A DNA stretch of 64,000 nt, from positions 44,602 through 108,601 of the forward strand of contig JBNKBE010000021.1 in the NCBI GenBank assembly GCA_050287085.1, given 5' to 3'. This stretch comes from Polyangiaceae bacterium. Lineage in GTDB: Bacteria; Myxococcota_A; Polyangia; Polyangiales; Polyangiaceae. Of this stretch, positions 11 to 29,145 are shown piece by piece. Numbering within the stretch: position 1 is the stretch's first letter; every line of letters starts with the position of its first letter. The notes beneath the pieces were generated by a model. That model had not been told where the DNA came from and searched no databases. It worked only from the letters and a program-made list of their open reading frames with translations. A program made the translations under genes and the position numbers.

Positions 11-1402
11 TCAGCGAACCTTCACCCGTGAAATGAGCTCTTCGAGCAGCTGGTCGGCGGTGCTTAGCACCTGGGATGCGGCTTGAAACGCCCGCTGGTA
101 CTTGGTGAGAGCGACCATTTCCTCGTCGAGGTTGACGCCACTGGTCGCCTCTCGCATGGTAAATAGTTGCTCTTCGATGCCCCTTCGCACGACTACGTCT
201 TGTTCAGCTTGTGCTTTGCGGGAGCCGACGTCCGCGACGATGGCGCCGTAGGCCTCAGCCCCGGTGCGTGTGCCGCCTTGAGCGTAACGCTGGTCGGCGA
301 GTTGCGACAGGGCGATCGCGTTGTTGCCATCGCCCGGTATCCCCGTGGGCGTGGCGGATGCTGCCACGCGTTGCACCGTAAGCGCTGGATTGAGTCGTAT
401 CTCGCGTGCGGCGCCGAGCGTTGCCGTGCTGAAGTCGAAAAGGTCTAGGCCCGTTGAACCATCAAGTCCGAACCCGGCTTGGTGTTGAGCGTTGAGGGCG
501 TCGCCCACCTCCTGGGCGAAGTCGTCCAGTTGCGACAGGATCTGGACAGCATGGACGTCGTGAAGCTCCCGTATCGCTCCCAGGCGACCCGCCGTTACGA
601 ACTTGGTGATTTCGCTTTGCGCTCCAGAGGCGCTCACCGCCGAGATCTTGAGGGAGCTGTCGTCCGCCAGGCTAACGCGGAGCGTTCGATAGACGTCACC
701 TTCTACCAGCACAGTGCCCGCGCCTTGGATGACGAGCTGTCCTTTCTCGTTCTCGAAGGTGTGAACGTTGACAAGTTCACTGAGGGAACCGATCAGCTGA
801 TCGCGCTTGTCCCGAAGGTCAGAAGCGTCGTGACCACCGGCTTCGGCGGTCTGGATCTGTTTGGTGACCTTGGCGATATCCTCCGTCAGGCGATTTACCT
901 GTTCGGTGGCGTCAACGGCCTGCTCCGTGAGGTCCGTTCTAAAGCGCGAGACCTGGCTAGCGGTTTCGTTGAGCCGTGTGGCGAATTGGTCTGCTCGCGA
1001 GAGGACTGCCGCGCGCGAGGATAGATTGCTTGGATCCGTGGACAGTTGACTGAAGGCGGCGAAGAGATCGGTCAGGGCCGAGCCCACGTCCTGGCCAGAA
1101 TTTACGTCGAAGAGGGACTCAACGTAACCCAGCATTCGATCGCTTTCTTCCGCACTGGCGGACATGCCGAGCGCCGCATAGTGCCGCTGGACGGCGAAGT
1201 TGTCGACGAGGCGGTCGACGCCGCGAACGACAACGGTTCCGAAGCTCGCGTCGCCGAGCGGAAGCGACTCCAGGTTCGCGCGGCGACGCGCATATCCAGG
1301 CGTATTGACGTTGGCGACGTTTTGGCCAGTTACGCCGAGGCCATACGACTGTGCGCTGATCGCGTCGCGCGCCGTATTGAGAATGTCGCTGAGTCCGGCC
1401 AT
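11..1402 (-). CDS. flgK: Flagellar hook-associated protein 1
   Basis: N-terminal GQNVANVNTPGYARR and C-terminal SGVNLDEEMVALTKYQRAFQAAS axial-protein motifs, internal DLRDKRDQL. Confidence 0.96.
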   Translation of the reverse strand: MAGLSDILNTARDAISAQSYGLGVTGQNVANVNTPGYARRRANLESLPLGDASFGTVVVRGVDRLVDNFAVQRHYAALGMSASAEESDRMLGYVESLFDVNSGQDVGSALTDLFAAFSQLSTDPSNLSSRAAVLSRADQFATRLNETASQVSRFRTDLTEQAVDATEQVNRLTEDIAKVTKQIQTAEAGGHDASDLRDKRDQLIGSLSELVNVHTFENEKGQLVIQGAGTVLVEGDVYRTLRVSLADDSSLKISAVSASGAQSEITKFVTAGRLGAIRELHDVHAVQILSQLDDFAQEVGDALNAQHQAGFGLDGSTGLDLFDFSTATLGAAREIRLNPALTVQRVAASATPTGIPGDGNNAIALSQLADQRYAQGGTRTGAEAYGAIVADVGSRKAQAEQDVVVRRGIEEQLFTMREATSGVNLDEEMVALTKYQRAFQAASQVLSTADQLLEELISRVKVR

Positions 1403-1453
1403 AGGTCATCGTCTCGTCGCGGGGGGAATTCGTGGCGCGACTGTTGGTGGAGC

Positions 1454-1469
1454 AGCAAGAGTGATGCCA
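1454..1469 (-). promoter_or_regulatory. Sigma-54 (-24/-12) promoter for flgK
   Basis: Minus strand TGGCATCACTCTTGCT = GG-N10-GC with TGGCA and TTGC, about 50 bp upstream of the flgK ATG. Confidence 0.75.
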
Positions 1470-1745
1470 TCCCGGACGCCTCTGAAGTCGCCTGCCATGG
1501 GCCGCCCGGGGGTAGCGCGTTGGGGAGAGCGCCATGAGACAGCCGCTGGGGCCGCCAGCCGCGTGGCGCCCGAAAGGCAACGCGTCCGAGCCTTCCGTCT
1601 GAAGCAGCATCGGGGCAGCCTCACCCCCGGACTGCGGCGCGGGCGTCAGCAACACGTCTCGAGCACCAAGCTTCCAAGGTGGAGCGAGTCCCGAGGGGCA
1701 GGAACGCGGTGGCGGGCGAGGCGCTGCGCGGTGGCGGGCAGGAAG

Positions 1746-2093
1746 CTACCCGCGGATGTTCACGGCGAGCGGTCGTGGTGCGACTTTTGAGGCTTGTCCA
1801 CCAGCACCCGGTAGGGTGGCGCCGGCCAGCATCTGCAGGACACCCTGGGTGCACGCCCGGGCGTGAGCCAGCAGGCGCTGGTTCTCAATCGCGCTGCGGC
1901 GCAGTGAGGTCAGTCGCGTCACGGCCGAGTCCGAAGCCGCGTTCGGGATCGGTAGCTGCTTGAGCCGCACGTCCAACGCGAGCTTGCGTTCCGCGGCTTG
2001 TTCAATGGCGGTGCGGTCGAGGCGTCGAAGCGCCTCCCGCTCGTCGCCGAGGATCTGCTCGAATTCGTCCAGGAGCAGATCGAGCTGCGTCAC
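1746..2093 (-). CDS. flgN: Flagellar export chaperone FlgN-like
   Basis: Helical 115 aa protein (LxxEREAL...ENQRLL) between flgM and flgK. Confidence 0.75.
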   Translation of the reverse strand: MTQLDLLLDEFEQILGDEREALRRLDRTAIEQAAERKLALDVRLKQLPIPNAASDSAVTRLTSLRRSAIENQRLLAHARACTQGVLQMLAGATLPGAGGQASKVAPRPLAVNIRG

Positions 2094-2378
2094 TTATAGA
2101 CTCCCGCTTTCGAGCATACGCTGCGCGACATGGGTGGAGTCCACCCGGAAGGTGCCGTCCGCAATGGCGGCTCTCAGGGCGTCGACCTTGGCGTGATTGA
2201 CTTGACCAGAGCTGGCCGCCAAGGACTGCGCTTCAGCCGAGATGGAGACCTTGGCTGCTTCGCTTGCACTGCCTCGTGTGGTACTCGAGGTCCCTTCCGT
2301 ACGCTGCTGGGGCGCGACGGGTTTGACCGCCATGCGTTGGTATGCGTCGAGGGCTGGGTTTCCGGTAATTCCCTTCAT
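2094..2378 (-). CDS. flgM: Anti-sigma-28 factor
   Basis: KVSISAEA...AKVDALRAAIADGTFRVDSTHVAQRML motif; GGAGG Shine-Dalgarno upstream. Confidence 0.92.
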   Translation of the reverse strand: MKGITGNPALDAYQRMAVKPVAPQQRTEGTSSTTRGSASEAAKVSISAEAQSLAASSGQVNHAKVDALRAAIADGTFRVDSTHVAQRMLESGSL

Positions 2379-2448: not shown

Positions 2449-2475
2449 ACATCGGCTAGCGCGGCCGCTTCTTGA
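2449..2475 (-). promoter_or_regulatory. Sigma-28 (FliA) promoter for flgM-flgN
   Basis: Minus strand TCAA-N15-GCCGATGT versus consensus TAAA-N15-GCCGATAA, 70 bp upstream of flgM. Confidence 0.7.
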
Positions 2476-2524
2476 GGAAGTTCTGCGCTCTTTTTTTACA
2501 TGTGGCATCGCCGATGACCTTTGG

Positions 2525-2923
2525 TCATTTCAGTGTGTGTTGTGATGAAACAGGGTTAGGGGTAGGAGAAGGGGAGTGTACCGGTGTGGGGCCCCCGCGG
2601 GCTGCGTCTCCGGATTCGGAGGCGGAAGAAGGTGTTGGGGAGGCGGGACGTCCGCTGAGTGCTTCGAGCACCAGAGCTGAAAGGCCGATGCCATCCCCTT
2701 GGGTTACGTTGTCCGCGATGGCTCCTACCAGCATTGAACCGTAGACGGCGGAGCCGGTCCGGCTCTGACCCCCAAAAGCGTTGGTCTGCTCGAGAGAGCT
2801 TAGCATCTGACGGACGAAAATCGCCTCGAACTGACGCGCGGCTTGCAAACGCGCCGTCTCTTCGGGCCTGCGCGTCAGCGCGGTGTCCTGGGGGGTTGGG
2901 GGAAGAGCTCCGAGCGGAATCAT
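2525..2923 (-). CDS. flgJ: Rod-binding protein, single-domain FlgJ without muramidase
   Basis: LQAARQFEAIFVRQML...GIGLS motif; directly follows flgI. Confidence 0.85.
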   Translation of the reverse strand: MIPLGALPPTPQDTALTRRPEETARLQAARQFEAIFVRQMLSSLEQTNAFGGQSRTGSAVYGSMLVGAIADNVTQGDGIGLSALVLEALSGRPASPTPSSASESGDAARGGPTPVHSPSPTPNPVSSQHTLK

Positions 2924-4032
2924 TGAACGAGTACCTCGGCACGCAGCGCACCGGCTGAACGAAGGGCTTGCAAGATGCTTGCCAGTTCTCGCGGCGGCAC
3001 TCCGAAGGTTGCGAGTGCCTGAGCTACTTCGGCAAGCGAGTTGGCCCCGTCCAGGTATGCCACGGTGGGCTTCTCCTCGCTCGCGTCCACCTCGCTATCG
3101 GGGACGACCTGCGTGTTGCCACCCGCGAGAGCGTTTGGCTGTTCAACGCGGGGCTTCTCCGAAACCGTAATGGTAATACCGCCTTGCGCGATAGCGACGG
3201 GAAGCAGGCGCACGTCACCACCGGCGACGATGGTGCCGGTGCGCTCGTTGATGACAACCACCGCGGCTGCCTCAGGCGTCACGTCCAGGGTGCTGAGCTC
3301 GGAGAGAAGTTGAACGCTACGTCCCTTGTAATTCTTGCCGAGCTTGACCGAGATGGCCCCACCGTCGAGCGCCTTCGCGGTGCCCTGACCTAATTTTTCC
3401 TCAATGGCGCTCACGATGCGCTGGGCGGTGACAAAGTCTGGGCGCCGAAGTGCCAGCGTAATGACACCGTCTTCGGCATAGGCCATTTTGATTTCACGTT
3501 CCACCAGCGCACCACCGGGAATGCGTGCCGTGTTGGTCGTACCCGAGCGCACGCTGCTTCCAGAGGAGCCGCCCGCCGAAAACCCACCGATGACCAGGGG
3601 GCCTTGCGCCACCGCATAGGTCTTCCGATCGGCACCGCGCACGGCCGTTTGAACCAGAACTCCGCCCCGCAGGGAACGGGCGTTGCCGATCGATGAGATG
3701 GTTACGTCGAGCCGAGCTCCAGAGCGGGCGAAGGCTGGAATATCGGCCGTCACCATGACCGCGGCCACGTTCTTCAGCCGAAGCTGGCTTGCGTCCACTT
3801 GAACGCCCAGGCGGCGGAGCAGCGCTCTGAGCGACTGCATGGCAAAGGGGGCGCTGACGTCATCCCCGGTACCGTCCAGTCCGGTGACAACCCCGTAGCC
3901 GACGAGCTGGTTGTCGCGAACACCCACGACATGACACAGGTCCAAAAGGCGGTCTGCCCGTGCACTTCGCGGCACCAGAGCAGCGACTAGACCGAGTAGG
4001 AGGGCTACGAGGGGAAGAATACTTCGGGGCAT
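2920..4032 (-). CDS. flgI: Flagellar P-ring protein
   Basis: GVRDNQLVGYGVVTGLDGTGD, NVAAVMVTA, INERTGTIV, LQALRSAGALRAE. Confidence 0.97.
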   Translation of the reverse strand: MPRSILPLVALLLGLVAALVPRSARADRLLDLCHVVGVRDNQLVGYGVVTGLDGTGDDVSAPFAMQSLRALLRRLGVQVDASQLRLKNVAAVMVTADIPAFARSGARLDVTISSIGNARSLRGGVLVQTAVRGADRKTYAVAQGPLVIGGFSAGGSSGSSVRSGTTNTARIPGGALVEREIKMAYAEDGVITLALRRPDFVTAQRIVSAIEEKLGQGTAKALDGGAISVKLGKNYKGRSVQLLSELSTLDVTPEAAAVVVINERTGTIVAGGDVRLLPVAIAQGGITITVSEKPRVEQPNALAGGNTQVVPDSEVDASEEKPTVAYLDGANSLAEVAQALATFGVPPRELASILQALRSAGALRAEVLVQ

Positions 4033-4790
4033 CAGAATGGGTTTATCCAGTCGAGCGTTTGGGTCAGCCAGCCGCGGTTTACTGTTTGATCTATATCGCC
4101 TCGCCCGGTGAACTCGACTTGGGCATCGGCAATGCGCGATGAGGAGACCGAGTTGTCCATGGCGATATCGGAGGGGCGTACCAGACCGGAGACGTAGAGG
4201 TGATACTCCTCGTGATTGATCATCACGACCTTGGTGCCTTCGACGAATAGGTCGCCATTGGGGACCTCAGCCTTGACGCGAACGGCTACGGCGCCTTGCA
4301 ACTGCCCGGCCCGACTTGTCTGGCCGTCGCCCTTGAAGCTGGTTTTACTGAGGATTGAAATGAGCTCCTCAGTATTGATTTCGGGGTGCGCATCTCGCAG
4401 CGCCGGCAGCAGTCCAAGCATGGAGCTGATGCCGTCTTCGCGTGATGTTTCGTGATTGAGTGCGGTCTTGGCGCCCCCTTTTGCATCCGCTCGCTCCTCG
4501 ATTCGAATGAGTACGATGTCTCCCACCCGAACCGCGCGCGTGTCCTCCAGGTAGCCAGCGCTGGCTTCGCTGTAGATTGAGCCCTGGGCGGGTGCGGCGT
4601 CCTCGCGCGTCTGGGCGTATGAACCCGTTTCGTACACGCGTGACTTGGGCTTGAATGGGGCGATATGCGCAGGCCCGCAAGCGGTCGCGAGCCACAACAA
4701 CGCGGCCACTGAGCTCGAGCTACGGAACGTGCGTGTATTTGGGTGGATGAGCAGGGACGCCGGGGGCGTTCGGAATGGAAGCTGCGTCAT
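4032..4790 (-). CDS. flgH: Flagellar L-ring lipoprotein
   Basis: Lipobox LATAC, DTRAVRVGDIV, PNGDLFVEGTK, GLVRPSDI, SSRIADA, GWL...PF; ATG overlaps the flgA stop. Confidence 0.93.
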   Translation of the reverse strand: MTQLPFRTPPASLLIHPNTRTFRSSSSVAALLWLATACGPAHIAPFKPKSRVYETGSYAQTREDAAPAQGSIYSEASAGYLEDTRAVRVGDIVLIRIEERADAKGGAKTALNHETSREDGISSMLGLLPALRDAHPEINTEELISILSKTSFKGDGQTSRAGQLQGAVAVRVKAEVPNGDLFVEGTKVVMINHEEYHLYVSGLVRPSDIAMDNSVSSSRIADAQVEFTGRGDIDQTVNRGWLTQTLDWINPF

Positions 4791-5581
4791 TGTGGGCCTG
4801 TCACGGCCGCGGTATTGGCGCTGACCAAACGCGCTCGCAGCACACGGCCCGTGCTGACTATCCGAAATGTCCCTTCTTCTCCCACGTCCAGGCTTTGAAG
4901 GGCCGTGGCGCGGGCACCCACCGTTGCATTGCCCGTGTGGATCTCGAGTAGCACGGCGGCGCCCCGGACCGCTGCATGCCGAGCCGCGGACGCGTCCAGC
5001 TGCAAGAAGACGGTGAGGGGAACCTGCTGGTAGGGGGTGTGGTCGATGAGCAGTTCGGCGGTGAAGGTGGTCCGCACCACCCCGACCCGTTTGGGAAGCT
5101 TGGGAACTCGGACATTGCCCCACTCGATGTCGTCGGAGATCAGCACGGCGTGATTGGCCGTCACCGCGCGGAGCGTGACCCCCGCGGGCAAGGCGCGCCG
5201 TATGTGTGGCGTCGCGAGTTGAGCCAGTTCTGCGGCCGCCACTCTTCTGCCTGCCTTCTCCGCCACTACGAGCCGCGGTAGCGTGAAGTCCTTGGGGTCA
5301 AAGCCGGCGGCGCGTATTTGATGTTCTAGCTGGGCCAGGGTGAAGGTGCGGCGTTGTCCCGGGTGCGGGGCAGGACCCAGGTCGATGCTGCGGGCGGGCT
5401 CTTCCAGAGCTTCGACAACCTCGCCGAGCTCCACGCGAGCGCCAGCGATCGGGCGAGCGTCGTCCCCGGAGGCAAAGGCGCGGACGGCGCCGAAGAACAA
5501 GGCTGCCACCGCGCCGCGCCGTACCCAGGTTGCATGGCGTGACCACTTGCGCTTGTGTGGACGGGAGCGTTTTTTTGCCAT
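4787..5581 (-). CDS. flgA: P-ring assembly chaperone
   Basis: Signal peptide; C-terminal VRGAAV...ATALQSLDVGE...VSTGRVLRARL; located between flgG and flgH. Confidence 0.75.
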   Translation of the reverse strand: MAKKRSRPHKRKWSRHATWVRRGAVAALFFGAVRAFASGDDARPIAGARVELGEVVEALEEPARSIDLGPAPHPGQRRTFTLAQLEHQIRAAGFDPKDFTLPRLVVAEKAGRRVAAAELAQLATPHIRRALPAGVTLRAVTANHAVLISDDIEWGNVRVPKLPKRVGVVRTTFTAELLIDHTPYQQVPLTVFLQLDASAARHAAVRGAAVLLEIHTGNATVGARATALQSLDVGEEGTFRIVSTGRVLRARLVSANTAAVTGPQ

Positions 5582-6366
5582 TACTTCATCTGGGTTGCGG
5601 CGCGCAGCATGTCGTCAGCCGCGGTGATAATCTTGGAGTTGACTTCGTAGGCGCGCTGCGTGGATATCAGCCCGACCATTTCGGAGACGACGTCCACGTT
5701 CGACTTCTCGAGCGCACCTTGCAGGAGGGCGCCTCGACTGTCCGTTCCAGGGGCTCCGACCTGCGGATCGCCGCTGGCGGATGTCGCGAGATATAGATTT
5801 CGACCGAGCGAGCTTAACCCTGCCGGGTTCACGAATGCCGCAGTATTGATCTGGCCGAGCTGCGCCGGTGCTGCCTGCCCGTGCAGAGTAGCGTTGACCG
5901 TGCCGTCCGCACCCACGCTTACACTGAGCGCGTCGGGGGGGATAAGGATCGGGGGGTCGAGCGCGAAACCCTCAGCCGTGACGAGCTGACCCTGAGAGTC
6001 TTTCTGCAGGGCTCCCGAGCGCGTGTACGCGGGCACGCCGTCCGGCTGCTGGACGACAAAGAATCCGTCGCCCTCAATGGCGAGATCGAGAGGGGCGTCG
6101 GTCACCAAGATAGTGCCTTGGGAGAACTGGCGAGACGTGCCGGCCACTTTGACTCCGCTTCCGAGCTGGAGCCCGGTCGGTGACGCGGTATTGGCGTTCG
6201 TCTGACTGCCTGCGGCGCGCACCGTCTGGTAGAGCAGGTCCTGAAAGTCGATTCGCTGTTTCTTGTAGCCGTTGGTATTGGCGTTTGCGATGTTGTTGGC
6301 GATGCCGTCGAGCTGAGTCTGCTGTGCGGACATACCCGTCGCCGCAATATTCAAGGAACGAAACAT
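5581..6366 (-). CDS. flgG: Distal basal-body rod protein
   Basis: MFRSLNIAATGM...ANNIANANTNGYKK, FQDLLYQ, LEKSNVDVVSEMV; 261 aa. Confidence 0.97.
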   Translation of the reverse strand: MFRSLNIAATGMSAQQTQLDGIANNIANANTNGYKKQRIDFQDLLYQTVRAAGSQTNANTASPTGLQLGSGVKVAGTSRQFSQGTILVTDAPLDLAIEGDGFFVVQQPDGVPAYTRSGALQKDSQGQLVTAEGFALDPPILIPPDALSVSVGADGTVNATLHGQAAPAQLGQINTAAFVNPAGLSSLGRNLYLATSASGDPQVGAPGTDSRGALLQGALEKSNVDVVSEMVGLISTQRAYEVNSKIITAADDMLRAATQMK

Positions 6367-6643: not shown

Positions 6644-7252
6644 TTAGAATCCCACGCGAAAGCCGAGATCGGCCGTTAGCCAAGTCAAAACAGAATCCGG
6701 AGTGGGGCGATCGCTTCCAAGGGGGAATGACGCGAGACCGAGCTCCGCGCTGAGAGCGAGTTCGTCGGTGAAGCGAAAGATATAGCCACCGCCTGCGCGA
6801 GCGCCGAGCAGGGTGCGAGGACGCCAAACCAAGATGGGACCGACGAATCCGGTCAATCCCCAGGGCAAGGTAGCTCTGCCGTGGAAAGCCAGTCCGAAGG
6901 AACCGCTCCGCTCGAGTTCGAACACGCCGAAGAGTCCCATGCTGAAGGGTGTTTCGCTGCCGCCCCATTCCCCACCCAACGTCATGCGCGTTCGCGCGCG
7001 GTGCCAGTAGAGATTGCCCGTTCCAGGATCCGCCCCTTCGATCCCGGTGCCTAGGGCGAGCACTCCTTCAACCTGTCGCGGTCCATCTGCCCGGGCGTGG
7101 GGGCACCAAGTCACCGCGGCCAATGCGAGCAGGCAGGCGTGCGCAGCAACCCGCCCCAGTGCGATTCGGGGCGCGGTTGTTCTGGCGCCAGTATCGGTCG
7201 CCGCGCGGGCGCGCCCGGCGGCGGAGACGCGGCAGCCCGTCTTGAAGGTCAT
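6644..7252 (-). CDS. Putative outer-membrane beta-barrel protein
   Basis: Signal peptide ending AxA, alternating Gly/hydrophobic strands, C-terminal DLGFRVGF with terminal Phe. Confidence 0.6.
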   Translation of the reverse strand: MTFKTGCRVSAAGRARAATDTGARTTAPRIALGRVAAHACLLALAAVTWCPHARADGPRQVEGVLALGTGIEGADPGTGNLYWHRARTRMTLGGEWGGSETPFSMGLFGVFELERSGSFGLAFHGRATLPWGLTGFVGPILVWRPRTLLGARAGGGYIFRFTDELALSAELGLASFPLGSDRPTPDSVLTWLTADLGFRVGF

Positions 7253-8373: not shown

Positions 8374-8444
8374 AGTCTTGTTCACCAGTGCCTTCGGGGA
8401 GGGATGCCAGGACGCGGGAGAGCGCCCATCTCGAAGGGGTAGTG

Positions 8445-8460
8445 AGCAAGCATCGGGCCA
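8445..8460 (-). promoter_or_regulatory. Sigma-54 promoter for the activator gene
   Basis: Minus strand TGGCCCGATGCTTGCT (GG-N10-GC, TTGC). Confidence 0.6.
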
Positions 8461-9652: not shown

Positions 9653-9653
9653 C

Positions 9654-20422: not shown

Positions 20423-20425
20423 CTC

Positions 20426-21088: not shown

Positions 21089-21097
21089 GGAAATGCG

Positions 21098-21367
21098 ATG
21101 ACAACTGATGGTGCAATAGAGTTGTTGCTTGGGGTGATTGTCGCGTGGCTCAAGATGGCTGGCCCGATGCTGATCGCCGCGCTCCTGGTGGGCGTCTTGG
21201 TGGGCGTCTTGCAGGCCGCCACGCAGATCAACGAGGCGAGCATTAGCTTTCTGACCAAGCTATTTGCCGTTGGATTGGTCATCGTCGCGCTGGGTTCATG
21301 GTCGGCACGCCAGTTGGTGGAGTACACGACGCGCACGATCAGCTCGATTTCGAACGTGGTGCAGTGA
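21098..21367 (+). CDS. fliQ: Export gate protein
   Basis: LQAATQINEASISF; 89 aa. Confidence 0.95.
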   Translation: MTTDGAIELLLGVIVAWLKMAGPMLIAALLVGVLVGVLQAATQINEASISFLTKLFAVGLVIVALGSWSARQLVEYTTRTISSISNVVQ

Positions 21368-22135
21368 ATGTCCGAGCTACTCGCCGAGCTCAGCCGATAT
21401 CTGTTGGAGGTGACGCGCCTGAGCGGCGTGTTGGTGGTCGGAACGGCTCCTTTTGAGGGGGCGCCGAGGCAGGCGAAAGTGGGGCTTGTGTTGTTGCTTG
21501 GACTTGTGGCCCACGGCAGTGGCTCCGGCGGCCTAGCACCTATTCACCCCTTGGGCATCGTACCGCTGCTGGTTTCCGAGTTTCTGATAGGGGTCTTGAT
21601 GGGGCTTGTCGTTCGCATGGCGGTAGCCGTGGCTGAGGTAGCGGGCACCACCTTGGCCCCGATGATCGGCTTTGGCGCAGCTCAAGTGTTCGACCCAGGC
21701 ACGGGGCAACAAGACTCGGTCCTGACGCGTGTGTACCGACTGTTTGCGGGGTTGGTCGCGGTCTCGGTGGGGTTGCATCGGGTGTTACTCGCGGCGGTGC
21801 TGGAGGGATTCGAGCGCTTGCCGGTGGGGGCCGCCTCACACCTAGAAGCGTCTGCCCAGGGGTTGCTGATCCTCAGCAGCGGTGTGATTTCGGGAGGGTT
21901 GTTGCTGGCTCTACCGGCGCTAGCCGCCCTGCTGATGGTGCAACTAGCCCTCGCCTTTGTCGCCCGCGCGGCGCCCGCGATGCAGATCTTCAACATTGGC
22001 TTCACTATCTTCTTGGGCACGGGCGGTGTCTTGCTGTGGCTAACGCTCCCGGATACGGGGCGCGCGTTGGCTCGCCAGTTCTCTCATGTGGGCGCGCAGT
22101 TGGAAGCTGTCCTTCTGGCGGTGGTACAAGGCTAA
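21368..22135 (+). CDS. fliR: Export gate protein
   Basis: Multi-TM protein, EFLIG, GFGAAQVFDP, ARAAPAMQIF. Confidence 0.92.
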   Translation: MSELLAELSRYLLEVTRLSGVLVVGTAPFEGAPRQAKVGLVLLLGLVAHGSGSGGLAPIHPLGIVPLLVSEFLIGVLMGLVVRMAVAVAEVAGTTLAPMIGFGAAQVFDPGTGQQDSVLTRVYRLFAGLVAVSVGLHRVLLAAVLEGFERLPVGAASHLEASAQGLLILSSGVISGGLLLALPALAALLMVQLALAFVARAAPAMQIFNIGFTIFLGTGGVLLWLTLPDTGRALARQFSHVGAQLEAVLLAVVQG

Positions 22136-22226
22136 GGCACAGCGATGAGCCGGCCCGCCACGGCAAGAGGAGCGGCCGGCGTAGTATGACTTTCCCTCCG
22201 CGGGCCCCTAGTCCCTCGGTGCTCAG

Positions 22227-23288
22227 ATGGCAGACGACCAAGAGAAGACAGAGGAGGCGACCCCAGAGCGTCGCAAGAAGGCACGGGACGAAGGGCAGTT
22301 TCCTCGAGGCAAGGATGCGGGCAATACCGCCGGCTCGATCATGGTCCTGCTGACTGTCGTGGCGTTCGGAGATTTCTTCAGGGCCGAGATTGGAAGCTTT
22401 GCCTGGCTCTGCTTTCACGAATCAGACTTTCTGATCCGAGGCAATATCTCGGACTTGCTAGGGCACCTGGTGCGCGTGCTCTTCTTCGTCATCGCTCCGC
22501 TGTCGCTTGCCGCCGCGCTTGGAGCCTTTGCGGTGGGTGTCGCGGAAGCCGGGTTCCACCCAAACATGGACCTCATTGCTCCCAAGTGGAGCCGCTTGGA
22601 CCCGCTCTCCAAACTCAAGCAGATGTTCTCGCCGCAGCAAGCGACGGTCAATGTGGCACTCCAGTTGGGACGGGTGGTTGCCGTCGCCGCAGTCGCTTGG
22701 TTTTCCGTGGCTGGCTCGCTGCCCGAGCTACTGAGTCTCTCCCGGACCGGCATCCGCGGCGCTGCCTTGCAGCTGGCCACAAGTCTACTCAAGTTGGCTC
22801 TCTGGGCATCGCTTGCGCTTGTCGTCTTGGTCGCAGTCGACTTCCTATACAACCGTTTCAAGCACGAAAAGCAGATTCGGATGAGCAAGCAGGAGGTCAA
22901 AGACGAGTACAAGAATCAGGAGGGCGATCCCAGGGTGAAGGCGCGCCAGCGCGCGAAGGCACGCGAGATGGCCAAGCGAAGCATTCTCCAGGCGGTTCAG
23001 TCTGCGGACTTCGTGATCGCCAACCCGACTCACGTGTCGGTGGCCATCCGCTATCGTCCGGAAGAAGGCGCGCCGGTCGTTGTGGCCAAGGGGTTCGACC
23101 AAGTCGCACTGCACATTCGACAACTGGCGGAGCGTTTCGAGGTTCCGGTGATCGAGAACGTGCCCTTGGCGCGCGCGCTCGCCCGCCAAGTCAAAGTGGG
23201 GCGTCAGATCCCTGTCGATCTCTACGCGGCGGTCGCCGAGGTATTGGCGCTCGTCTATCGACTGAAGAATCGTTCGCTCATGGCATAG
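22227..23288 (+). CDS. flhB: Export switch protein
   Basis: EKTEEAT, MSKQEVKDEYKNQEGDP, NPTH autocleavage site. Confidence 0.97.
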   Translation: MADDQEKTEEATPERRKKARDEGQFPRGKDAGNTAGSIMVLLTVVAFGDFFRAEIGSFAWLCFHESDFLIRGNISDLLGHLVRVLFFVIAPLSLAAALGAFAVGVAEAGFHPNMDLIAPKWSRLDPLSKLKQMFSPQQATVNVALQLGRVVAVAAVAWFSVAGSLPELLSLSRTGIRGAALQLATSLLKLALWASLALVVLVAVDFLYNRFKHEKQIRMSKQEVKDEYKNQEGDPRVKARQRAKAREMAKRSILQAVQSADFVIANPTHVSVAIRYRPEEGAPVVVAKGFDQVALHIRQLAERFEVPVIENVPLARALARQVKVGRQIPVDLYAAVAEVLALVYRLKNRSLMA

Positions 23289-23422: not shown

Positions 23423-23438
23423 TGGCACGGTTGGTGCT
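23423..23438 (+). promoter_or_regulatory. Sigma-54 promoter for flhA-flhF-fliA-flgF
   Basis: TGGCACGGTTGGTGCT (GG-N10-GC) in the flhB-flhA gap. Confidence 0.7.
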
Positions 23439-23525
23439 TCTTCATTGCCCGAGCTGGGCGGACCCGCGTGAGCCAACCTCAAAGCGTTGTCGCTCGCAGC
23501 TCGAGCTAGGAAGAACGGAGCCGTA

Positions 23526-25610
23526 GTGACGACACATGCCGCTGTCAGCAGTGAGGCCAAAGCCTACTCGGACCTAGCGGTTCCTCTTGGCATCGTGGGG
23601 ATCGTCATGATGATGGTCCTGCCGCTACCGGCGGTGCTCGTCGATCTGCTCCTTGCCTGCTCGCTGGCGGTAGCCATTGGGGTCTTCCTGATCGGCTTGT
23701 TCATGGACCATCCGCTCCAGTTCAGCGCGTTTCCCGCTGTAATCCTCGTGGCAACGTTGCTTCGTCTGAGCGTCAATGTGGCCACGACGCGGCTGATTCT
23801 GCTCAATGGTGCAGGGGGACAGGCCGCCGCCGGACAGGTGATCGAGACCTTTGGCCTCTTTGTCGTGGGCGGCAACGTGGTCGTCGGTTTGGTCGTCTTC
23901 CTGATCCTCGTGGTGATCAACTTCGTGGTGATCACCAAAGGCGCAGGGCGCGTCGCAGAGGTGGCGGCGCGCTTTGCTCTGGATGGAATGCCTGGCAAGC
24001 AGATGGCCATAGATGCTGACCTGAACGCTGGGATCATCAACTCCGAGCAGGCGCACGATAAGCGGCGCAACGTGGAGCGTGAGGCCGACTTCTTTGGCGC
24101 GATGGACGGCGCGAGCAAGTTCGTCAAGGGCGACGCCATCGCTGGGTTGCTCATTACCGGGATCAACTTGCTCGGTGGTTTGATGCTTGGCATCGCAGCC
24201 GGGATGGACGTCGCGGAGGCGGCGCAGGCGTTTTCGATCTTGTCCGTAGGCGACGCGCTTGTCTCTCAGATGCCGGCACTGCTGATGTCGACGGCCGCTG
24301 GCGTTGTCGTCACGCGTTCCGCCACGGGGGAACAACTTGGCCGTGCCTTGCGCTCGCAGCTGCTGGGGAGTCGACGGGCCGTCGCCTCGACAGCGGGCAT
24401 CTTGACGGTGATGGCCTTCATTCCGGGCATGCCGGCCATTCCCTTCTTGGGTTTGGCAGGGGCGCTGGGGGCGGTTGCCTACCGCGCGGGCAAACGGAGT
24501 GAGAAGGCGCGGCGGGCTCAAGATCAGGCCAAGGAGGAGGTTCCGCAGCGAGAGGAGCCCATCGAGTCGGTGTTGCCCCTGGATGTCTTGAGCCTAGAGG
24601 TCGGCTACGAGCTAATCCGAGCCGTGGATCCGTCGATGGGGGGGACCCTCGTCGAACGCATTTCCAGCCTGCGTCGTCAGATTGCTCAGGAGCTGGGCAT
24701 CGTGGTTCCCCCGGTACACATTCGCGATAATCTGCAGTTGTCACCGGGCCGCTATCGCTTCGTACTGCTGGGTACGGAGATTGCGGGGGGAACTCTGGCC
24801 GGGGGGAAGTTGCTTGCCATGGACCCAACCGGTCAGGCTCCGGCCATCGATGGCGAGGCGACGGTCGACCCGACTTTCGGGACGCCAGCGCGCTGGGTGC
24901 GCAATCAGGACCGCGAGCTCGCAGAGGCTCTTGGCTATACGGTGGTTGACCAAGCCACGATCATCGCCACGCATTTGGCGGAAGTGGTGCGCCGTCACGC
25001 AGACCAGATCCTTGGGCGCTCAGAACTCCAGGCCCTCTTCGATGTCTTTTCTCAGAGCACGCCGAAGCTGGTCGAAGATCTGGTACCAAACTTGCTCTCG
25101 TTCGGTGAGGTGCTCAAGGTGATGCGCAACTTGCTTCGAGAGGGAGTCTCCATTCGTGACCTCAGGACGCTGCTCGAGGCTTTACTGGAAGTGGCCCCGG
25201 CTACGAAGGATCCTGAGCAGCTCACGGAATTGACACGCCAGAAGCTCTATCGTCAGATCACTGCCGCCTATTCGGATTCTGACAACAGCATTGGCACCCT
25301 CATTCTCGACCCCGCGGTGGAAGAGATGTTTCGGCGCTCGTTGACTGAGATCGCTCAGGGGATCGGGGGCGCGCTCGATCCCAATCAAGCGCGGGCTTTG
25401 GGGGATTCGCTTGAGCATGCAGTGGCGAGGATGCAGGCGATGGGGTTGCCCCCCTGTCTCGTGACGAGCCCGGATTTGCGACGTTACGTGCGTGCTTTTG
25501 CGGAGCGCCGGATCCCAGCATTGGGCGTCCTTTCCTTCCGCGAAATCGATCCAACTACGACGATTCGACCGATCGAATCGGTGTCCTTTAACAGTGCAGT
25601 GGCCGCATAG
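23526..25610 (+). CDS. flhA: Export gate protein
   Basis: RVAEVAARFALDGMPGKQMAIDADL, FFGAMDGASKFVKGDA; GTG start after GGAG. Confidence 0.97.
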   Translation: MTTHAAVSSEAKAYSDLAVPLGIVGIVMMMVLPLPAVLVDLLLACSLAVAIGVFLIGLFMDHPLQFSAFPAVILVATLLRLSVNVATTRLILLNGAGGQAAAGQVIETFGLFVVGGNVVVGLVVFLILVVINFVVITKGAGRVAEVAARFALDGMPGKQMAIDADLNAGIINSEQAHDKRRNVEREADFFGAMDGASKFVKGDAIAGLLITGINLLGGLMLGIAAGMDVAEAAQAFSILSVGDALVSQMPALLMSTAAGVVVTRSATGEQLGRALRSQLLGSRRAVASTAGILTVMAFIPGMPAIPFLGLAGALGAVAYRAGKRSEKARRAQDQAKEEVPQREEPIESVLPLDVLSLEVGYELIRAVDPSMGGTLVERISSLRRQIAQELGIVVPPVHIRDNLQLSPGRYRFVLLGTEIAGGTLAGGKLLAMDPTGQAPAIDGEATVDPTFGTPARWVRNQDRELAEALGYTVVDQATIIATHLAEVVRRHADQILGRSELQALFDVFSQSTPKLVEDLVPNLLSFGEVLKVMRNLLREGVSIRDLRTLLEALLEVAPATKDPEQLTELTRQKLYRQITAAYSDSDNSIGTLILDPAVEEMFRRSLTEIAQGIGGALDPNQARALGDSLEHAVARMQAMGLPPCLVTSPDLRRYVRAFAERRIPALGVLSFREIDPTTTIRPIESVSFNSAVAA

Positions 25611-25621: not shown

Positions 25622-26689
25622 GTGACGGTGGAATACCAGACGTTTCGGGGTGCTGATGTCAAAGAAGCTCTATTCGCTGTTCGGCAGGCATTGGGCGCAG
25701 ATGCGATGATCGAGTCGACGCGACACCTCACGAATGGACAGAGCGGTGCACTGGGACATTCGGTCGTCGAGATCGTTGCTGCGCCTGCCACGGCGGGGCG
25801 TCCGCGTATGGGCGAAAGGCTGGGGGCACGGGGCGTAGGTCGAGTCAACGCCGCGCGGATTGAACGTGAACTGCTGGCCTTGCGGGCGATGGTCGACGAA
25901 CTCAGCGCAAGCCGTCCGCCTCGCGATCGCATTCGCGCGGTGCTCAATGCGGCGGGCTTCGAGGGAGACCTGGCCAAGAGTCTCGCTGCCGGCGCAACAA
26001 GACCCGCCAAAGATGGTCGAGCGGCTCTCGTGGAGTACCTGCGCTCTCGTGTGGGCGAAAGATTGCTATGTCAGCCGCGGCTGATCGAGAGGAACTTTCG
26101 GCAGCTCATCGCCTGCGTCGGGCCGACTGGCGTGGGCAAGACAACCACCTTGGCCAAGCTTGCCGCGCGCGCGCGACTGGAGCTTCAGCGCAGTGTTACC
26201 GTGGTGAGCTTGGATACGTTCCGTGTTGGGGCTGTGGAGCAGTGGCAGCGCTACGCTGAGTTGATTGGCGTCCAGTTCTATGTGGCTGAAGACGCTGCAA
26301 CATTTTCTCGCATCGTCGAGTCCTCACCCAGCGACATCATCTTGGTCGACTCTGCGGGTCAGGCTGCCCATGAAGACGCGTCCATGTTGCGACTCGGCAG
26401 CTGTCTGCAATCCGTCAAGAATATCCGCACGGAGGTTCAGCTGGTTCTTCCGGCTTGGATCCGAGCGCGAGACGCCGAACGGATAGCGGCCGCCTATGTC
26501 CGACCTCATCTTACCGGTCTGATTGTGACCAAGCTGGACGAGGCGGAACAGGTGGGTGGCTCGATTCATGCAGCCTTAGCCGGACAGCTTCCCGTGACGT
26601 ACCTATGTGACGGGGCGCGCGTCCCCGAGGACATTCGCGACGCGGCGCGGGAGTCCGTCCTAAACGCACTCTTTCCGGAGCAAACTTGA
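25622..26689 (+). CDS. flhF: SRP-family GTPase
   Basis: GPTGVGKTTTLAKLA, DTFRVGAVEQ, DSAG, TKLDE, VPEDI. Confidence 0.93.
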   Translation: MTVEYQTFRGADVKEALFAVRQALGADAMIESTRHLTNGQSGALGHSVVEIVAAPATAGRPRMGERLGARGVGRVNAARIERELLALRAMVDELSASRPPRDRIRAVLNAAGFEGDLAKSLAAGATRPAKDGRAALVEYLRSRVGERLLCQPRLIERNFRQLIACVGPTGVGKTTTLAKLAARARLELQRSVTVVSLDTFRVGAVEQWQRYAELIGVQFYVAEDAATFSRIVESSPSDIILVDSAGQAAHEDASMLRLGSCLQSVKNIRTEVQLVLPAWIRARDAERIAAAYVRPHLTGLIVTKLDEAEQVGGSIHAALAGQLPVTYLCDGARVPEDIRDAARESVLNALFPEQT

Positions 26690-27491
26690 GCGTGGAAGAA
26701 CAGTCAGCCATTCAACGGACTGCCGGTCGCGGGGTCACCGCCACCGCTGCCGTCAGGGCGCGTGTCGATCCGGGCCAACGCGAGGTATACGAGCGCTATC
26801 TCCCCATCGTGCGCCGCATCGCCATGCGTACCGTCCGCTCCTTGCCCCCTTCGGTCACGATCGACGACGTCATTTCCGCAGGATGGCTCGGCATGGTCGA
26901 AGCGCTCGGGCGACGTACGGAAGAGATGACGGACGAGCACTTCGAGGCGTTTGCGTCCTATCGGGTACGCGGGGCGATACTCGACCATCTGCGCATGCTC
27001 GATCCCATGAGCCGCAAGCTGCGGGGTGCCTCTCGCAAGATCACCCAGGTGGTCAACGAACTCATTGGTCGTCTCGGTCGTAGCCCGGAGCAAGACGAAG
27101 TGGCTAGCGAGCTCGGCATGGAGCTCGGCGACTATCAGCGGCTTCTGGGTGAGATCAGCGAAGCCGGCTTTGCCCGACTGGAGCTTTCGGAGATCGGGGA
27201 GCCATCGGCGGGTGACGCGTCCCCGAAGCGCTGGCCACTCGGAGCGAGTTGGTGGGCAGCATTGCCGACGCGATCGACGCGTTGCCCGAACGACTGAACA
27301 CCATCGTTGGTCTGTATTATCAAGAAGAGTGCAGCTTTCGAGAGATCGGTGAGGTTCTGGGAGTGACCGAGTCCAGGGTCTGCCAGTTGCACGCGGAGGC
27401 GATGCATTTGATTCGAGCTACCGTGGAGGGACGGCCGATCACCACCGCTAAGCGCCGCGGTTCACGCGCGCAGCGGAGTCCCGTCAAGTGA
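26686..27491 (+). pseudogene. fliA: Sigma-28 factor split by a one-base frameshift (genuine lesion or sequencing error)
   Basis: Regions 2-3 (FASYRVRGAILDHLR) are in one frame and region 4 (LYYQEECSFREIGEVLGVTESRVCQLH) in another; adding one base at CCCC 27221-27224 gives DASPEALATRSELVGS. Confidence 0.9.
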
Positions 27492-28225
27492 GCACAGGCA
27501 TCTGGGTCGCGGCGTCTGGCGCCACCTCCCAGCTGACCGCGTTGGATGTCGCCGCTAACAATACGGCCAACGCGACTACCGCTGGCTACAAGGGCGAGGA
27601 CGCGATCTTTCAGGAGTACCTGATCGATGCCGCACGGGCTGGCAATCAGGTATCCGCGATGCGCTACAACGGTGTTGCGGAGGTTCGCAGCGACCATGCG
27701 ACAGGGCCCATCCAGGTCACGGACCGCGGGTTGGATGTTGCGATTCGGGGCGAGGGGTTCTTTGCGGTTCAGACCCAAAACGGGGAGCGCTATACGCGAG
27801 CTGGTGCGTTTTCAGTGTCGCCGTCTGGCAATCTCGTTGCCGCCGATGGTGCGCTCGTCTTGAATACCGCGCGCCGTCCGATCCGAGTGAACGGCAATGC
27901 CAATGAGGCACGGATCACCGAAGGGGGAACGTTGATGGTGGGTGGAGAGCCTGCCGGCCAGTTGCGCCTGGTCCGCTTCGCAGACCAAGCTAGACTCGAG
28001 AAGGAAGGCAATACCCTATTTCGCGCGACGCCCACTTCGGGCGCTGCACAACAGGGCCCGATCACGCTCGAGACCGGTGCCTTGGAGATGGCAAATATCT
28101 CAGTCGTCAAGAGCATGACGGACATAGTGTCGACGACCCGAACATTTGACGCTCTCGAGCGCGCCATTGACGTGTTTCGGGACGCAGACACCCGCGCTGC
28201 CAACGACCTAATGCGTCGTCGCTAG
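27488..28225 (+). CDS. flgF: Proximal rod protein
   Basis: ANNTANATTAGYK, LDVAIRGEGFF, YTRAGAF, GALEMANIS. Confidence 0.88.
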   Translation: MSTGIWVAASGATSQLTALDVAANNTANATTAGYKGEDAIFQEYLIDAARAGNQVSAMRYNGVAEVRSDHATGPIQVTDRGLDVAIRGEGFFAVQTQNGERYTRAGAFSVSPSGNLVAADGALVLNTARRPIRVNGNANEARITEGGTLMVGGEPAGQLRLVRFADQARLEKEGNTLFRATPTSGAAQQGPITLETGALEMANISVVKSMTDIVSTTRTFDALERAIDVFRDADTRAANDLMRRR

Positions 28226-28301
28226 TGAATTGCCACGTCGAGAGATGAAAATGCCGCGGGAATTAGTGCTTTGCTGGTTTTGGGTCCCAATATGGAAACG
28301 A

Positions 28302-28317
28302 TGGCATGAATGATGCA
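28302..28317 (+). promoter_or_regulatory. Sigma-54 promoter upstream of fliW
   Basis: TGGCATGAATGATGCA (GG-N10-GC) in an AT-richer intergenic segment. Confidence 0.6.
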
Positions 28318-28668
28318 CCGGAGTATTGGTGGGCCCCATGTTGTTCTCGGCGGTATCGGCTGCAAGCAAATGACGAGAGATCGGCGAGAAACGAGCGAAC
28401 CATCAATGGGCAAAGCGTTCAAACCTGTAGCTAGACGCGGCCGCGAGTGCTGCTCGCTGCCGGAGGGTTTAGGAAGAGTAGATTGCGCAGAATCGGCGGG
28501 GCCGGTTTCAAAGGAAAAAGAGAGTCGATCAACGGACGTCGATGGAGCAGCGTTGGGGTGGCTCCCACCCCGAGCGGAGACACGGTGCTGCGGCATTTTG
28601 GAGATCGGTTCTAAGGAGTACTGATGCGACGGCTGGATTGAGCCGTTGCATTCAGAGGAGCTAGAAAG

Positions 28669-29145
28669 ATGAGGATCGAGACAAGTCGTTTTGGTGTGAT
28701 CGAGGCGGCCCCCGAGGAGCTGATCGAGTTTTCGCGCGGGATCGTGGGCTTCCCCCACGACAAGCAGTACGTGCTCATTCCCCATGCGACGTCTTCGATT
28801 GTCGCCTGGCTTCAGTCCGCGAAGACGCCGAGTCTGGCGTTTCCGGTGGTCTCTGCACACGGGTTGGTCGAAGAATACCCCGACGTAGACCTGGCACCCC
28901 TGGCTCGCCGAGCCGATCTCGGAGAGCGCTTCGACGACCTTGCCATTCTGGCTGTTCTCTCCGCGCCTCGGAATCAACCGGCCACGGTCAACCTAATGGC
29001 GCCGATTGTTGTCAACGCACACACGCGTCAGGGCGCTCAGATATTTCTTGAGGGGTCGCGATATTCCACGCGCGAGCTATTCGTGATCCCACCACGTCCC
29101 GACGAGAACGGTGGGGACAAGCCGCTAGAGGCTCGCGTCGGATAG
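28669..29145 (+). CDS. fliW: Flagellar assembly factor and CsrA antagonist
   Basis: MRIETSRFG, GIVGF, WLQS, TVNLMAPIVVN. Confidence 0.93.
   Translation: MRIETSRFGVIEAAPEELIEFSRGIVGFPHDKQYVLIPHATSSIVAWLQSAKTPSLAFPVVSAHGLVEEYPDVDLAPLARRADLGERFDDLAILAVLSAPRNQPATVNLMAPIVVNAHTRQGAQIFLEGSRYSTRELFVIPPRPDENGGDKPLEARVG

Follow-up and report, generated by a model that had tools for sequence, protein, structure and literature searches.

A chromosomal flagellar gene set in a Polyangiaceae bacterium likely encodes a working flagellum, with a predicted sodium-type stator and a FliM that lacks the CheY-docking peptide

Introduction

Papers still describe myxobacteria as organisms without flagella (for example, passages of PMC6060248). 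Flagella are already known in Myxococcota, from Anaeromyxobacter, from MAG reports and from survey tables. For Anaeromyxobacter dehalogenans 2CP-C, parts of Thomas et al. (2008, PMC2330069) argue that the flagellar cluster is ancestral and was lost in the gliding myxobacteria. Dataset S2 of a FliO survey (PNAS 2025, PMC12403147) scores flagellar FliO with FliP, FliQ and FliR in 8 of 22 Polyangiaceae, the named species Labilithrix luteola among the eight, and has no flagellar export genes in its rows for Sorangium, Polyangium, Chondromyces and Minicystis. The family appears there in table rows only, the main text never mentioning 'Polyang' or 'Labilithrix', and parts of the paper leave filament, stator, FliM and prevalence aside.

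Here we analyzed a 64,000-nucleotide stretch of a contig (C21) from an uncultured Polyangiaceae bacterium, called the window below and numbered from its first letter, which an earlier note had picked out for its flagellar genes.

Results

Flagellar genes in the window

Between 11 and 29145 the window holds 32 flagellar genes, 30 of them with NCBIfam or Pfam matches at E<=1e-3; flgA and fliJ were assigned from position and from weak matches below cut-off (PF13144, E 0.006, and PF02050, E 0.002). The earlier note had counted about 31, intact but for fliA, and the profile search combined with position agrees, since every flagellar frame in the window other than fliA is open. The features are as follows.

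1..11, minus strand: flgL, 5' end; the cluster continues past the window start
11..1402, minus: flgK, hook-filament junction (TIGR02492, 298 bits, over cut-off)
1746..2093, minus: flgN chaperone, likely (PF05130, E 3e-4, below cut-off)
2094..2378, minus: flgM, anti-sigma-28 (TIGR03824, over cut-off)
2449..2476, minus: predicted sigma-28-like promoter motif upstream of flgM (loose pattern)
2525..2923, minus: flgJ, short rod-cap form (TIGR02541, E 2.8e-10)
2920..4032, minus: flgI, P ring (NF003676, over cut-off)
4032..4787, minus: flgH, L ring (NF001301, E 5e-42; 70% identity to the copy in a second species, G320)
4787..5581, minus: flgA, likely (weak PF13144 match and position)
5581..6366, minus: flgG, distal rod (TIGR02488, over cut-off)
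6644..7252, minus: unannotated gene for a predicted 8-strand outer-membrane beta-barrel (its mature part spanning about 6647-7087 and its real start being uncertain)
7264..8478, minus: sigma-54 enhancer-binding protein, predicted flagellar activator (PF00158 and HTH_8; same location in relatives)
8788..8803, plus: predicted sigma-54 -24/-12 motif before flgB
8816..9980, plus: flgB, flgC, fliE (each over cut-off)
9992..12611, plus: fliF for the MS ring and fliG for the rotor, which retains its torque helix (profile matches; FliG alignment)
12589..15803, plus: fliH, fliI ATPase, fliJ (likely), fliK (profile matches; fliJ weak)
15688..17823, plus: flgD and flgE, hook cap and hook (profile matches)
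17866..18375, plus: fliL (NF009420, E 6e-11)
18481..19371, plus: fliM, 296 aa (with intact predicted middle and SPOA domains and no CheY-docking peptide at the N terminus)
19368..23288, plus: fliN, fliO, fliP, fliQ, fliR, flhB (profile matches)
23423..23438, plus: predicted sigma-54 -24/-12 motif before flhA
23487..25610, plus: flhA, export gate (TIGR01398, 826.8 bits, over cut-off)
25622..26689, plus: flhF GTPase (profile match)
26686..27491, plus: fliA, sigma-28 (reading frame in the assembly shifted by one base near 27221)
27488..28225, plus: flgF, proximal rod (TIGR02490, E 2e-52)
28669..29145, plus: fliW, CsrA antagonist (NF009799, E 4e-28)

The rod, hook and ring set (FlgBCDEFGK, FliE, FliF, FliG, FlgH, FlgI) is complete, and the export apparatus (FlhA, FlhB, FliP/Q/R and FliH/I/J, with fliJ weak) is all there. 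The charged torque helix of FliG singled out in the earlier note, MSKRAAERIQED, is indeed there, and it lines up with FliG of solved structure. No flhG lies between flhF and fliA. The barrel gene adjoins flgG and goes with flagellar clusters throughout the family: of the 84 carriers, 81 are flagellated. None of the 12 barrel proteins searched gave a Pfam match, nor was there a sequence match in the PDB. The two sigma-54 -24/-12 motifs in the region compare with 0.31 expected, and a strict sigma-28 pattern gave no site ahead of the flagellins.

Filament and stator genes upstream of the window

The earlier note had placed flagellin, cap and stator genes outside the window. That is true of the window itself; the contig carries them directly ahead of the window start, and there we found csrA, a maf/pseD-like gene, three copies of fliC, fliD and fliS, together with a stator pair. 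In C21 coordinates these include:

21775-22641: neuB-like gene
22740-23504: motA/pomA-like gene
23564-24478: motB/pomB-like gene
about 38.1-41.2 kb: three fliC genes

The genome encodes four short flagellins, three on C21 and one on C1, and the filament set found comprises flagellin with both terminal domains, FlgL, the cap FliD and the chaperone FliS. A genome-wide search for fliC, fliD, flgL, motAB and che genes, as the earlier note had proposed, recovered all of them; the general lack of fliC and motAB that it had envisaged as an argument against swimming is thus not what the genome holds.

For both stator subunits the best solved match is PomA/PomB (PDB 8BRI/8BRD). Residues R88, E96, D114, G154, T158, T185 and T186, and D24 of PomB, are in register, and R232 of the MotA subunit is replaced by alanine. 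PomA is also the best NCBIfam family for the A subunit, yet at 277.7 bits against a cut-off of 341. Threonines T158, T185 and T186 are given as marks of Na+ stators in parts of PMC10374538, and the stator of this flagellum is likely of the Na+ type, as predicted from these residues. The stator type (predicted Na+ or H+) varies between lineages, and such variation, together with the conserved torque residues of stator and rotor, fits selection on motor output. Flagellin occurs in 93 of 95 MotA-positive genomes; conversely, the MotA query had no match in 44 of 137 flagellin-positive genomes. Stator-less flagella in these relatives were considered and rejected, the MotB plug being present in 5 of 5 flagellin-positive genomes checked among those that the MotA query had missed.

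Taken together, these genes outline how the organelle could be made. The sigma-54 activator encoded between flgG and flgB would switch on the flgB and flhA operons, and completion of the hook would free FliA from FlgM. FliW and CsrA would meter flagellin, the Maf/PseD and NeuB-like genes would glycosylate it, and FlhF would set the flagellum at a pole.

The FliM switch and chemotaxis genes

The N-terminal motif of FliM serves in CheY docking, according to sections of PMC7534056. This peptide is missing here and in all 19 Polyangiaceae FliMs found. Among the FliMs read, it is intact in other Myxococcota classes, degenerate in the sister families and gone in Polyangiaceae. Outgroup FliMs match the docking consensus LSQxEIDALL, and no second protein carrying the strict motif was found in this genome. 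Because the docking peptide is lost, the motor may be mostly one-way or steered by a non-standard route, a proposal for which we see an even chance; such a motor would suit dispersal over classic run-and-tumble chemotaxis.

The genome has a che cluster at 184-194 kb of C2 (cheA-cheW-MCP-cheR-cheB plus cheX-cheY-cheD), and genome-wide CheA, CheW, a receptor, CheR, CheB, a stand-alone CheY and a phosphatase are all present. CheD occurs more often in flagellated relatives, 59 of 137 as against 29 of 138 genomes without flagellin, and in some of the flagellated ones it lies near flagellar genes. It was tried as a marker of flagellum-only chemotaxis and is not decisive, 17 of those 29 genomes without flagellin belonging to one genus. 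Even where the FliM peptide is missing, a second site allows CheY to switch motors. This second site, the full che cluster and the CheD enrichment count against an uncoupled switch.

Host genome and ancestry

RpoB of this genome is 82% and 80% identical to that of two Polyangiaceae-titled genomes and 63% (partial) to that of a Desulfobacterales-titled one, where identity to labelled kin runs at 86% within the genus, 70-80% within the family, 70-75% within the order and 63-69% within the phylum. By this housekeeping marker the host genome is Polyangiaceae, in keeping with the Polyangiales-like organism of the earlier note. The draft is split into 160 contigs, among them small ones of low GC and foreign look, and no 16S rRNA gene is assembled in it. 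Among the myxobacterial markers reported alongside the cluster, the TIGR04563 protein at 50530-50754 stands (112.7 bits, cut-off 65), the AgmX/PglI match at 57432-58364 is weak (32.3 bits vs a cut-off of 40), and the ORF at 38877-43121, earlier called elbD-like, has reductase and AMP-binding domains. As had been noted from the letters, no integrase or transposase family matched among the 70 window ORFs scanned; a search of the window found no tRNA genes. In the Agl-Glt gliding search, C8 showed two TolQ-like genes with TolR-like partners, and the GltJ model stayed under cut-off in 6 of 6 genomes.

Flagellin was found in 175 of 348 Polyangiaceae genomes; the remaining 173 gave no match, and they take in 6 of the 17 other genomes of the genus. 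The FlhA query at E<=1e-30 (279 of 348) was not used as a flagellum count, as it takes in SctV-like T3SS matches near 1e-85; in the phylum sample it matched 200 of 401, where those near 1e-130 from family f20 could likewise be SctV-like. FlhA identity declines with taxonomic rank. Across 40 genomes, 13 of 37 splits are common to the FlhA and RpoB trees, where shuffles gave a mean of 0.2 and a maximum of 3, and the patristic rho is 0.88. However, of the 14 FlhA splits with good support, 4 disagree with supported splits of the RpoB tree. In one of the four an order-level genome (G614) falls within the family, so there has been some transfer or error in the trees. Against G320, the flagellar genes have pN of 0.13-0.38 and pS of 0.66-0.80, as do glnA, greB and SDR, and by this comparison they are under purifying selection. 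Given flagellin in half of the family and an FlhA that largely tracks the RpoB tree, the system is, judged from these comparisons, ancestral in the family and patchily lost. The ancestral flagellum suggested earlier is thus borne out; the view of flagellated Polyangiaceae as a rare exception is not, published tables listing them as well.

Discussion

We consider it probable that this genome carries a complete, chromosomal, vertically inherited flagellar set, which would build a working flagellum, predicted to be sodium-driven, for swimming between surfaces. Gate, ATPase, MS, C, P and L rings, rod, hook, junction proteins, flagellins, cap and chaperones are all encoded, and the stator pair keeps the ion-binding residues and most torque residues. 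A broader proposal is tentative, and we hold it with considerable doubt: that about half of the Polyangiaceae would have an unrecognised swimming stage, their lineage-specific flagellum marked by stepwise loss of the FliM peptide, an unsteered or non-canonically steered dispersal motor, a dedicated, undescribed outer-membrane barrel and Na+/H+ stator swaps.

The break in fliA bears most directly on whether the flagellum works. Region 4 is in a different frame after about 27222, this is the sole copy in the assembly, and a genuine break would likely abolish the expression of flagellin. With no flagellin match in half of the family and in part of the genus, the cluster might then be a recently silenced relic heading for the same loss. 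However, a separate 34.6 kb contig of sequencing run X1 matches 16001-30364 without a mismatch, and its sole difference over these 14.4 kb is one additional base at the break; the frameshift is therefore probably an assembly error, the X1 contig carrying the missing base. The fliA halves are in frame in 15 of 15 relatives having both, the rest of the genes are unbroken and pN lies well below pS, which leaves a silenced relic very improbable. Run X1 contains this DNA and may be the source of the assembly, whereas almost nothing of it occurs in runs X2 and X3; no RNA run was listed among those that contain it. The same contig spans the cluster edge at 29.2 kb, where the earlier note had asked for read coverage in case the contig was chimeric. 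A chimera, or recent transfer of the cluster from another phylum, might be suspected in a draft so fragmented, with its foreign-looking small contigs and missing 16S gene, and yet we give it hardly any credence: depth across the junction is flat (14.1 vs 12.7), gene order from neuB through greB-SDR, and so the same edge, is identical in G320, GC is flat over the whole window, and the cluster has a family-wide spread and a congruent tree. In tetranucleotide distance, ten C21 windows fall at percentiles 5-92 of 582.

A flagellum that is built and turns could also serve mainly in surface sensing, adhesion or prey contact. The absence of the docking peptide from FliM, a PilB of the type IV pilus (over cut-off in the same genome), the glycosylation genes and conserved predicted barrel within the cluster, and the description of cultured myxobacteria as non-flagellated in parts of PMC6060248 would all suit such a role. 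We regard it as unlikely, given that torque residues of stator and rotor are conserved while stator type varies by lineage, and that swimming is reported in portions of PMC2330069 for Anaeromyxobacter strain K, whose cluster is homologous. Repurposing as a protein-secretion machine, raised in the earlier note, has a precedent in the flagellum-derived T3SSs of Myxococcales treated in parts of PMC3459982. We find it highly improbable here: FlgBCDEK, FliEG, FlgH and MotAB, which those parts report absent from such T3SSs, are all present, with filament, cap and stator intact, and separate SctV-, SctU-, SctR- and SctN-like genes lie on C4, C18 and C5.

New in the flagellum that we favor, as read from its genes, are the FliM without a docking peptide, the predicted Na+ or H+ stator types and the predicted barrel linked to flgG. 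Flagellin in 175 of 348 genomes, set against the absence of export genes from the survey rows for Sorangium, Polyangium and Chondromyces, suggests that the flagellum-less view of myxobacteria mostly reflects the choice of cultured strains. This bears on water dispersal of predatory myxobacteria and on the timing of the trade of flagella for gliding.

Comparison with known systems

The non-flagellar T3SS of Myxococcales ('Myxo'; Abby and Rocha, 2012, PMC3459982) has a homologous export gate and ATPase and, in the parts of that study concerned, is without rod, hook, L ring, FliG and stators, all of which the flagellar set here has; the separate Sct-like genes of this genome are likely a member of the 'Myxo' kind. 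With A. dehalogenans 2CP-C, which belongs to another Myxococcota family, the locus has in common one large chromosomal cluster of over 30 flagellar genes, with fliC and motAB, as given in parts of PMC2330069, where the che cluster of 2CP-C is embedded between motAB and fli genes. Unlike 2CP-C as portrayed there, this genome has its che genes on other contigs, motAB about 12 kb beyond fliS and a FliM without the docking peptide. The stator resembles Vibrio PomA/PomB in keeping the Na+-site threonines and glycine, R88, E96, D114 and PomB D24, and differs in having alanine at R232 and falling under the NCBIfam PomA cut-off, its ion use being predicted. The secondary (lateral) flagella of Shewanella putrefaciens reportedly also have a FliM without the CheY-binding motif (Bubendorfer et al. 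are said to have described this in 2014) in a motor that is otherwise complete, as here. That lateral system is said to be a second one beside a chemotactic polar flagellum, whereas the flagellum described here is the sole one of its genome and is accompanied by FlhF.

Flagellar gene content and assembly

The flagellum of the source genome is real, native and probably functional. The window (C21:44602-108601) belongs to a draft genome of 6.20 Mb, split over 160 contigs (62.8% GC; completeness 96.8%, contamination 0.85%). It holds 32 flagellar genes, 30 of them with family matches at E ≤ 1e-3, the matches for flgA and fliJ being only weak. The minus- and plus-strand arms are separated by a sigma-54 enhancer-binding protein gene and a single unannotated gene, and further flagellar genes lie upstream and on contig C1:

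Flagellar and linked genes of the source genome (window coordinates unless a contig is named)
Within 11-29145, minus strand: flgK, flgN, flgM, flgJ, flgI, flgH, flgA, flgG
Within 11-29145, plus strand: flgB, flgC, fliE, fliF, fliG, fliH, fliI, fliJ, fliK, flgD, flgE, fliL, fliM, fliN, fliO, fliP, fliQ, fliR, flhB, flhA, flhF, fliA, flgF, fliW
6644-7252, minus strand: barrel gene, its product starting like a signal peptide and ending in Phe
C21, directly upstream of the window: flgL, csrA, a maf/pseD-like gene, three flagellins, fliD, fliS
C21, ~12 kb further upstream: a neuB-like gene and a stator pair
C1: fourth flagellin

All four flagellins are short (~277 aa). The earlier note had reckoned with a genome without fliC and motAB as a case against swimming; with flagellins and a stator pair found on C21, that case falls away. 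Two sigma-54 motifs were found ahead of flgB and flhA, against 0.31 expected, and flgM is preceded by a loose sigma-28 motif. The GC content of the window is flat, no tRNA genes were found in it or in the preceding 40 kb, and the presence of the myxobacterial marker TIGR04563 at 50530 was confirmed.

Past ~27222, region 4 of fliA lies in a different frame. Among 23 related loci, six are cut short and two gave no match; the 15 holding both halves of fliA all have them in one frame. A single 34.6 kb contig from X1, a sequencing run holding DNA of the source genome, spans 16001-30364 with 0 mismatches and one extra base after 27221; it is a separate assembly, with X1 possibly the source sample itself. 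Given the in-frame relatives and the extra base, the break is probably an error of the source assembly. That X1 contig also runs across the fliW-greB-SDR edge (depth 14.1 vs. 12.7 downstream), which speaks against a chimeric join near 29.2 kb.

Several other features were observed. flhF is followed directly by fliA, without flhG between, in all four clusters read (window 25622-27491; G320, another species of the genus; G068 and G170, single-contig genomes of other genera). A small frame at ~6438-6640 (minus strand), between the barrel gene and flgG, resembles a cysteine-rich lipoprotein and may be no gene. Three large ORFs (738, 569 and 851 aa) between motB and a HAD gene (C21:24572-31228; locus L001:2-6529) are without clear family, one having a weak HEAT match, and are absent from the same place in G320. 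A HAD hydrolase, a LarA-family isomerase and a 1414-aa reductase/AMP-binding protein stand in a row at 36746-43121, an arrangement shared with the myxobacterial ether-lipid locus, and 46685-48109 (minus strand) encodes a DprE1-like decaprenylphosphoryl-ribose oxidase (436.8 bits vs. a cut-off of 500). Among contigs C70-C160, many of those <1.2 kb have a GC content of 37-55% vs. 63% for the genome and look foreign to the bin.

Host and descent of the flagellum

The FlhA search returned 80 loci, 18 at 63-80% identity (12 titled Polyangiaceae, six with broader or vaguer titles) and the other 62 at most 56%. RpoB of the source genome is 82% and 80% identical to those of two Polyangiaceae-titled genomes, 80% to that of a third, vaguely titled carrier of the same FlhA type, and 63% (partial) to that of a Desulfobacterales-titled genome; a fifth genome gave no match. 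By labelled rank, RpoB identity is 86% for genus, 70-80% for family, 70-75% for order and 63-69% for phylum. No 16S rRNA gene was found in the assembly. From the RpoB and FlhA identities, we infer Polyangiaceae as the host family.

The flagellum is common in this family. Flagellin (PF00669, E ≤ 1e-20) was detected in 175/348 family genomes at least 80% complete, 110/217 high-quality family genomes, 45/80 genera and 11/17 other members of the genus; this tally takes in the unpublished genome G218, and the FlhA family tally also the unpublished G257 and G258, none of which is the sole basis of a conclusion. Gene order from neuB-motAB through fliW-greB-SDR is identical in G320, and G068 and G170 also carry the cluster. 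In G170, ~25 kb of other DNA separates fliF and fliG (C1:1351.5-1376.8 kb; loci L216 and L127). An FlhA match at E ≤ 1e-120 occurs in 200/401 genomes of a phylum sample, some probably T3SS. Two families of this sample have no such match (0/24 f23 and 0/14 f30 genomes), so that the flagellum, on gene content, is lost from whole families. Among the matches listed, FlhA identity drops with rank: 66-81% for genus, 57-77% for family, 51-60% for order, 50-53% for class and 44-53% for the rest.

In line with the FlhA-against-species-tree check proposed in the earlier note, trees built for FlhA and for RpoB from a hand-picked set of 40 flagellated genomes are largely concordant, with 13/37 splits in common (1000 shuffles: mean 0.2, maximum 3) and a patristic rho of 0.88 overall and 0.75 within the family. 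Of the 14 FlhA splits with good support, nine are also found in RpoB; four conflict with it, one of these placing the genome G614 within the family. This pattern fits a flagellum that was present ancestrally and lost many times, with a degree of transfer or tree error. In the comparison with G320, flagellar genes have pN 0.13-0.38 and pS 0.66-0.80 (saturated), levels resembling those of neighbouring glnA, HAD, greB and SDR genes. Of the two readings first proposed, an ancestral flagellum and a repurposed secretion organelle, the first is supported by family-wide spread and tree agreement; separate SctV-, SctU-, SctR- and SctN-like genes in the genome cover the secretion role elsewhere than in the flagellar cluster, which speaks against the second. 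Non-flagellar T3SS-like genes are scattered at C4:121.5-123.4 kb, C4:315 kb, C18:8.3 kb and C5:217 kb.

Stator, rotor and switch

The best solved-structure match for MotA/MotB is Vibrio PomA/PomB. The stator keeps T158, T185, T186, R88, E96, D114 and PomB D24; R232 is not kept in MotA. The three threonines occur in all Na+ stators and are partly alanine in H+ stators (PMC10374538). MotA was matched in 95/275 family genomes at least 90% complete, 93 of the 95 flagellin-positive, and 26 carry close copies (57-74%, source genome included). The three threonines are present in each of the 25 full-length close copies; the five distant copies read all have A/A/T at 158/185/186, as do G068 and G170, where motAB lies inside the flagellar cluster; this suggests that stator type has switched within the family. 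FliG is full length and its torque helix is kept.

In the Na+-type MotA of loci L237, L240 and L241 (genomes G313, G310 and G307), the torque residues E96 and D114, both acidic, are replaced by A96 and S114. A second, divergent MotA/MotB-like pair (C26:38777-40140; loci L098, L100) is 29-31% identical to the flagellar one; no flagellar genes were seen around it. At C8:82-87 kb (L214) lie two divergent TolQ-like genes, each with two ExbD/TolR-like genes behind it; these may encode Agl gliding motors.

CheY binds an N-terminal motif of FliM; in Caulobacter, cells of a strain devoid of CheYs swim straight (PMC7534056). Here FliM (296 aa) begins at the segment that in other FliMs comes after the CheY-docking peptide, with an in-frame stop a short way upstream of its start. 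Its predicted model (pLDDT 80) matches Salmonella C ring FliM (E 5e-15), including the middle domain. The docking motif was found in none of 12 FliM matches from the titled loci closest to the source (one of them truncated where its locus ends), G320 FliM, or the 19 FliMs found in 22 family genomes, sets that overlap and are not additive; G022 FliM has a possible remnant. Among 20 more distant loci, 13 yielded a FliM: the motif is degenerate in 4/4 at order level, canonical in one and degenerate in two at class level, and at phylum level canonical by pattern in 4/6, with one more recognisable by eye. It is present in three deltaproteobacterial or Nitrospirota controls, and two alphaproteobacterial FliMs likewise lack it.

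The chances are roughly even that motor switching would be weak or non-standard. Against full uncoupling count a further CheY-binding site described for C rings, a cheA-cheW-MCP-cheR-cheB run facing cheX-cheY-cheD (C2:184-194 kb; L117), and CheD, present in 59/137 flagellated vs. 29/138 unflagellated kin, which are not independent. At L117, cheA has two Hpt domains, the PAS/HAMP receptor is 1051 aa, and a REC-GGDEF-EAL gene adjoins. CheD occurs in only 3/15 other members of the genus.

A predicted outer-membrane barrel

The barrel gene beside flgG, single-copy in the source genome, has no match in Pfam or PDB sequences. Its product is predicted to be an eight-strand outer-membrane barrel, the model (pLDDT 93) matching OmpA/OmpX-type barrels. 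The gene occurs in 84/275 family genomes, 81 of them flagellin-positive and the other three weak matches, and is flanked by the sigma-54 activator and flgG in 11/12 loci read; the remaining locus is too short. A profile search also recovered it from the clusters of G068 and G170 and from one class-level cluster. It belongs to a small family, with 132 clusters at E ≤ 0.001. Its linkage suggests a flagellar role; the gene may instead be a hitchhiker in the cluster.

Comparison with known systems

Myxobacteria have been stated to be without flagella (PMC6060248). A flagellum is already known in the phylum: Anaeromyxobacter has a 55.7 kb cluster, with strain K swimming and an ancestral origin argued (PMC2330069), and its flagellar transcripts were detected in paddy soil (PMC4405575). 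Flagellar assembly was noted for MAGs from Zodletone (10.1101/2021.07.06.451402). Pooled MAGs of Myxococcota and Bdellovibrionota showed flagellin expression (PMC11937823), and a 2026 preprint includes Myxococcota in its list of motile phyla (10.64898/2026.06.16.732483). In PMC12403147, Dataset S2 gives flagellar FliO together with FliPQR for 8 of all 22 Polyangiaceae rows, including Labilithrix luteola, and, within the 26 of 68 class rows covered, for Haliangiaceae, Nannocystaceae and Palsa-1104 MAGs; the main text does not mention Polyangiaceae. A full-text search, mostly outside subscription papers, found no literature on family-wide flagella, FliM peptide loss or the barrel in Polyangiaceae. 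New here are the missing FliM peptide, the apparent stator swaps and the linked barrel, a modest variant of a known flagellum and a clearly testable one.
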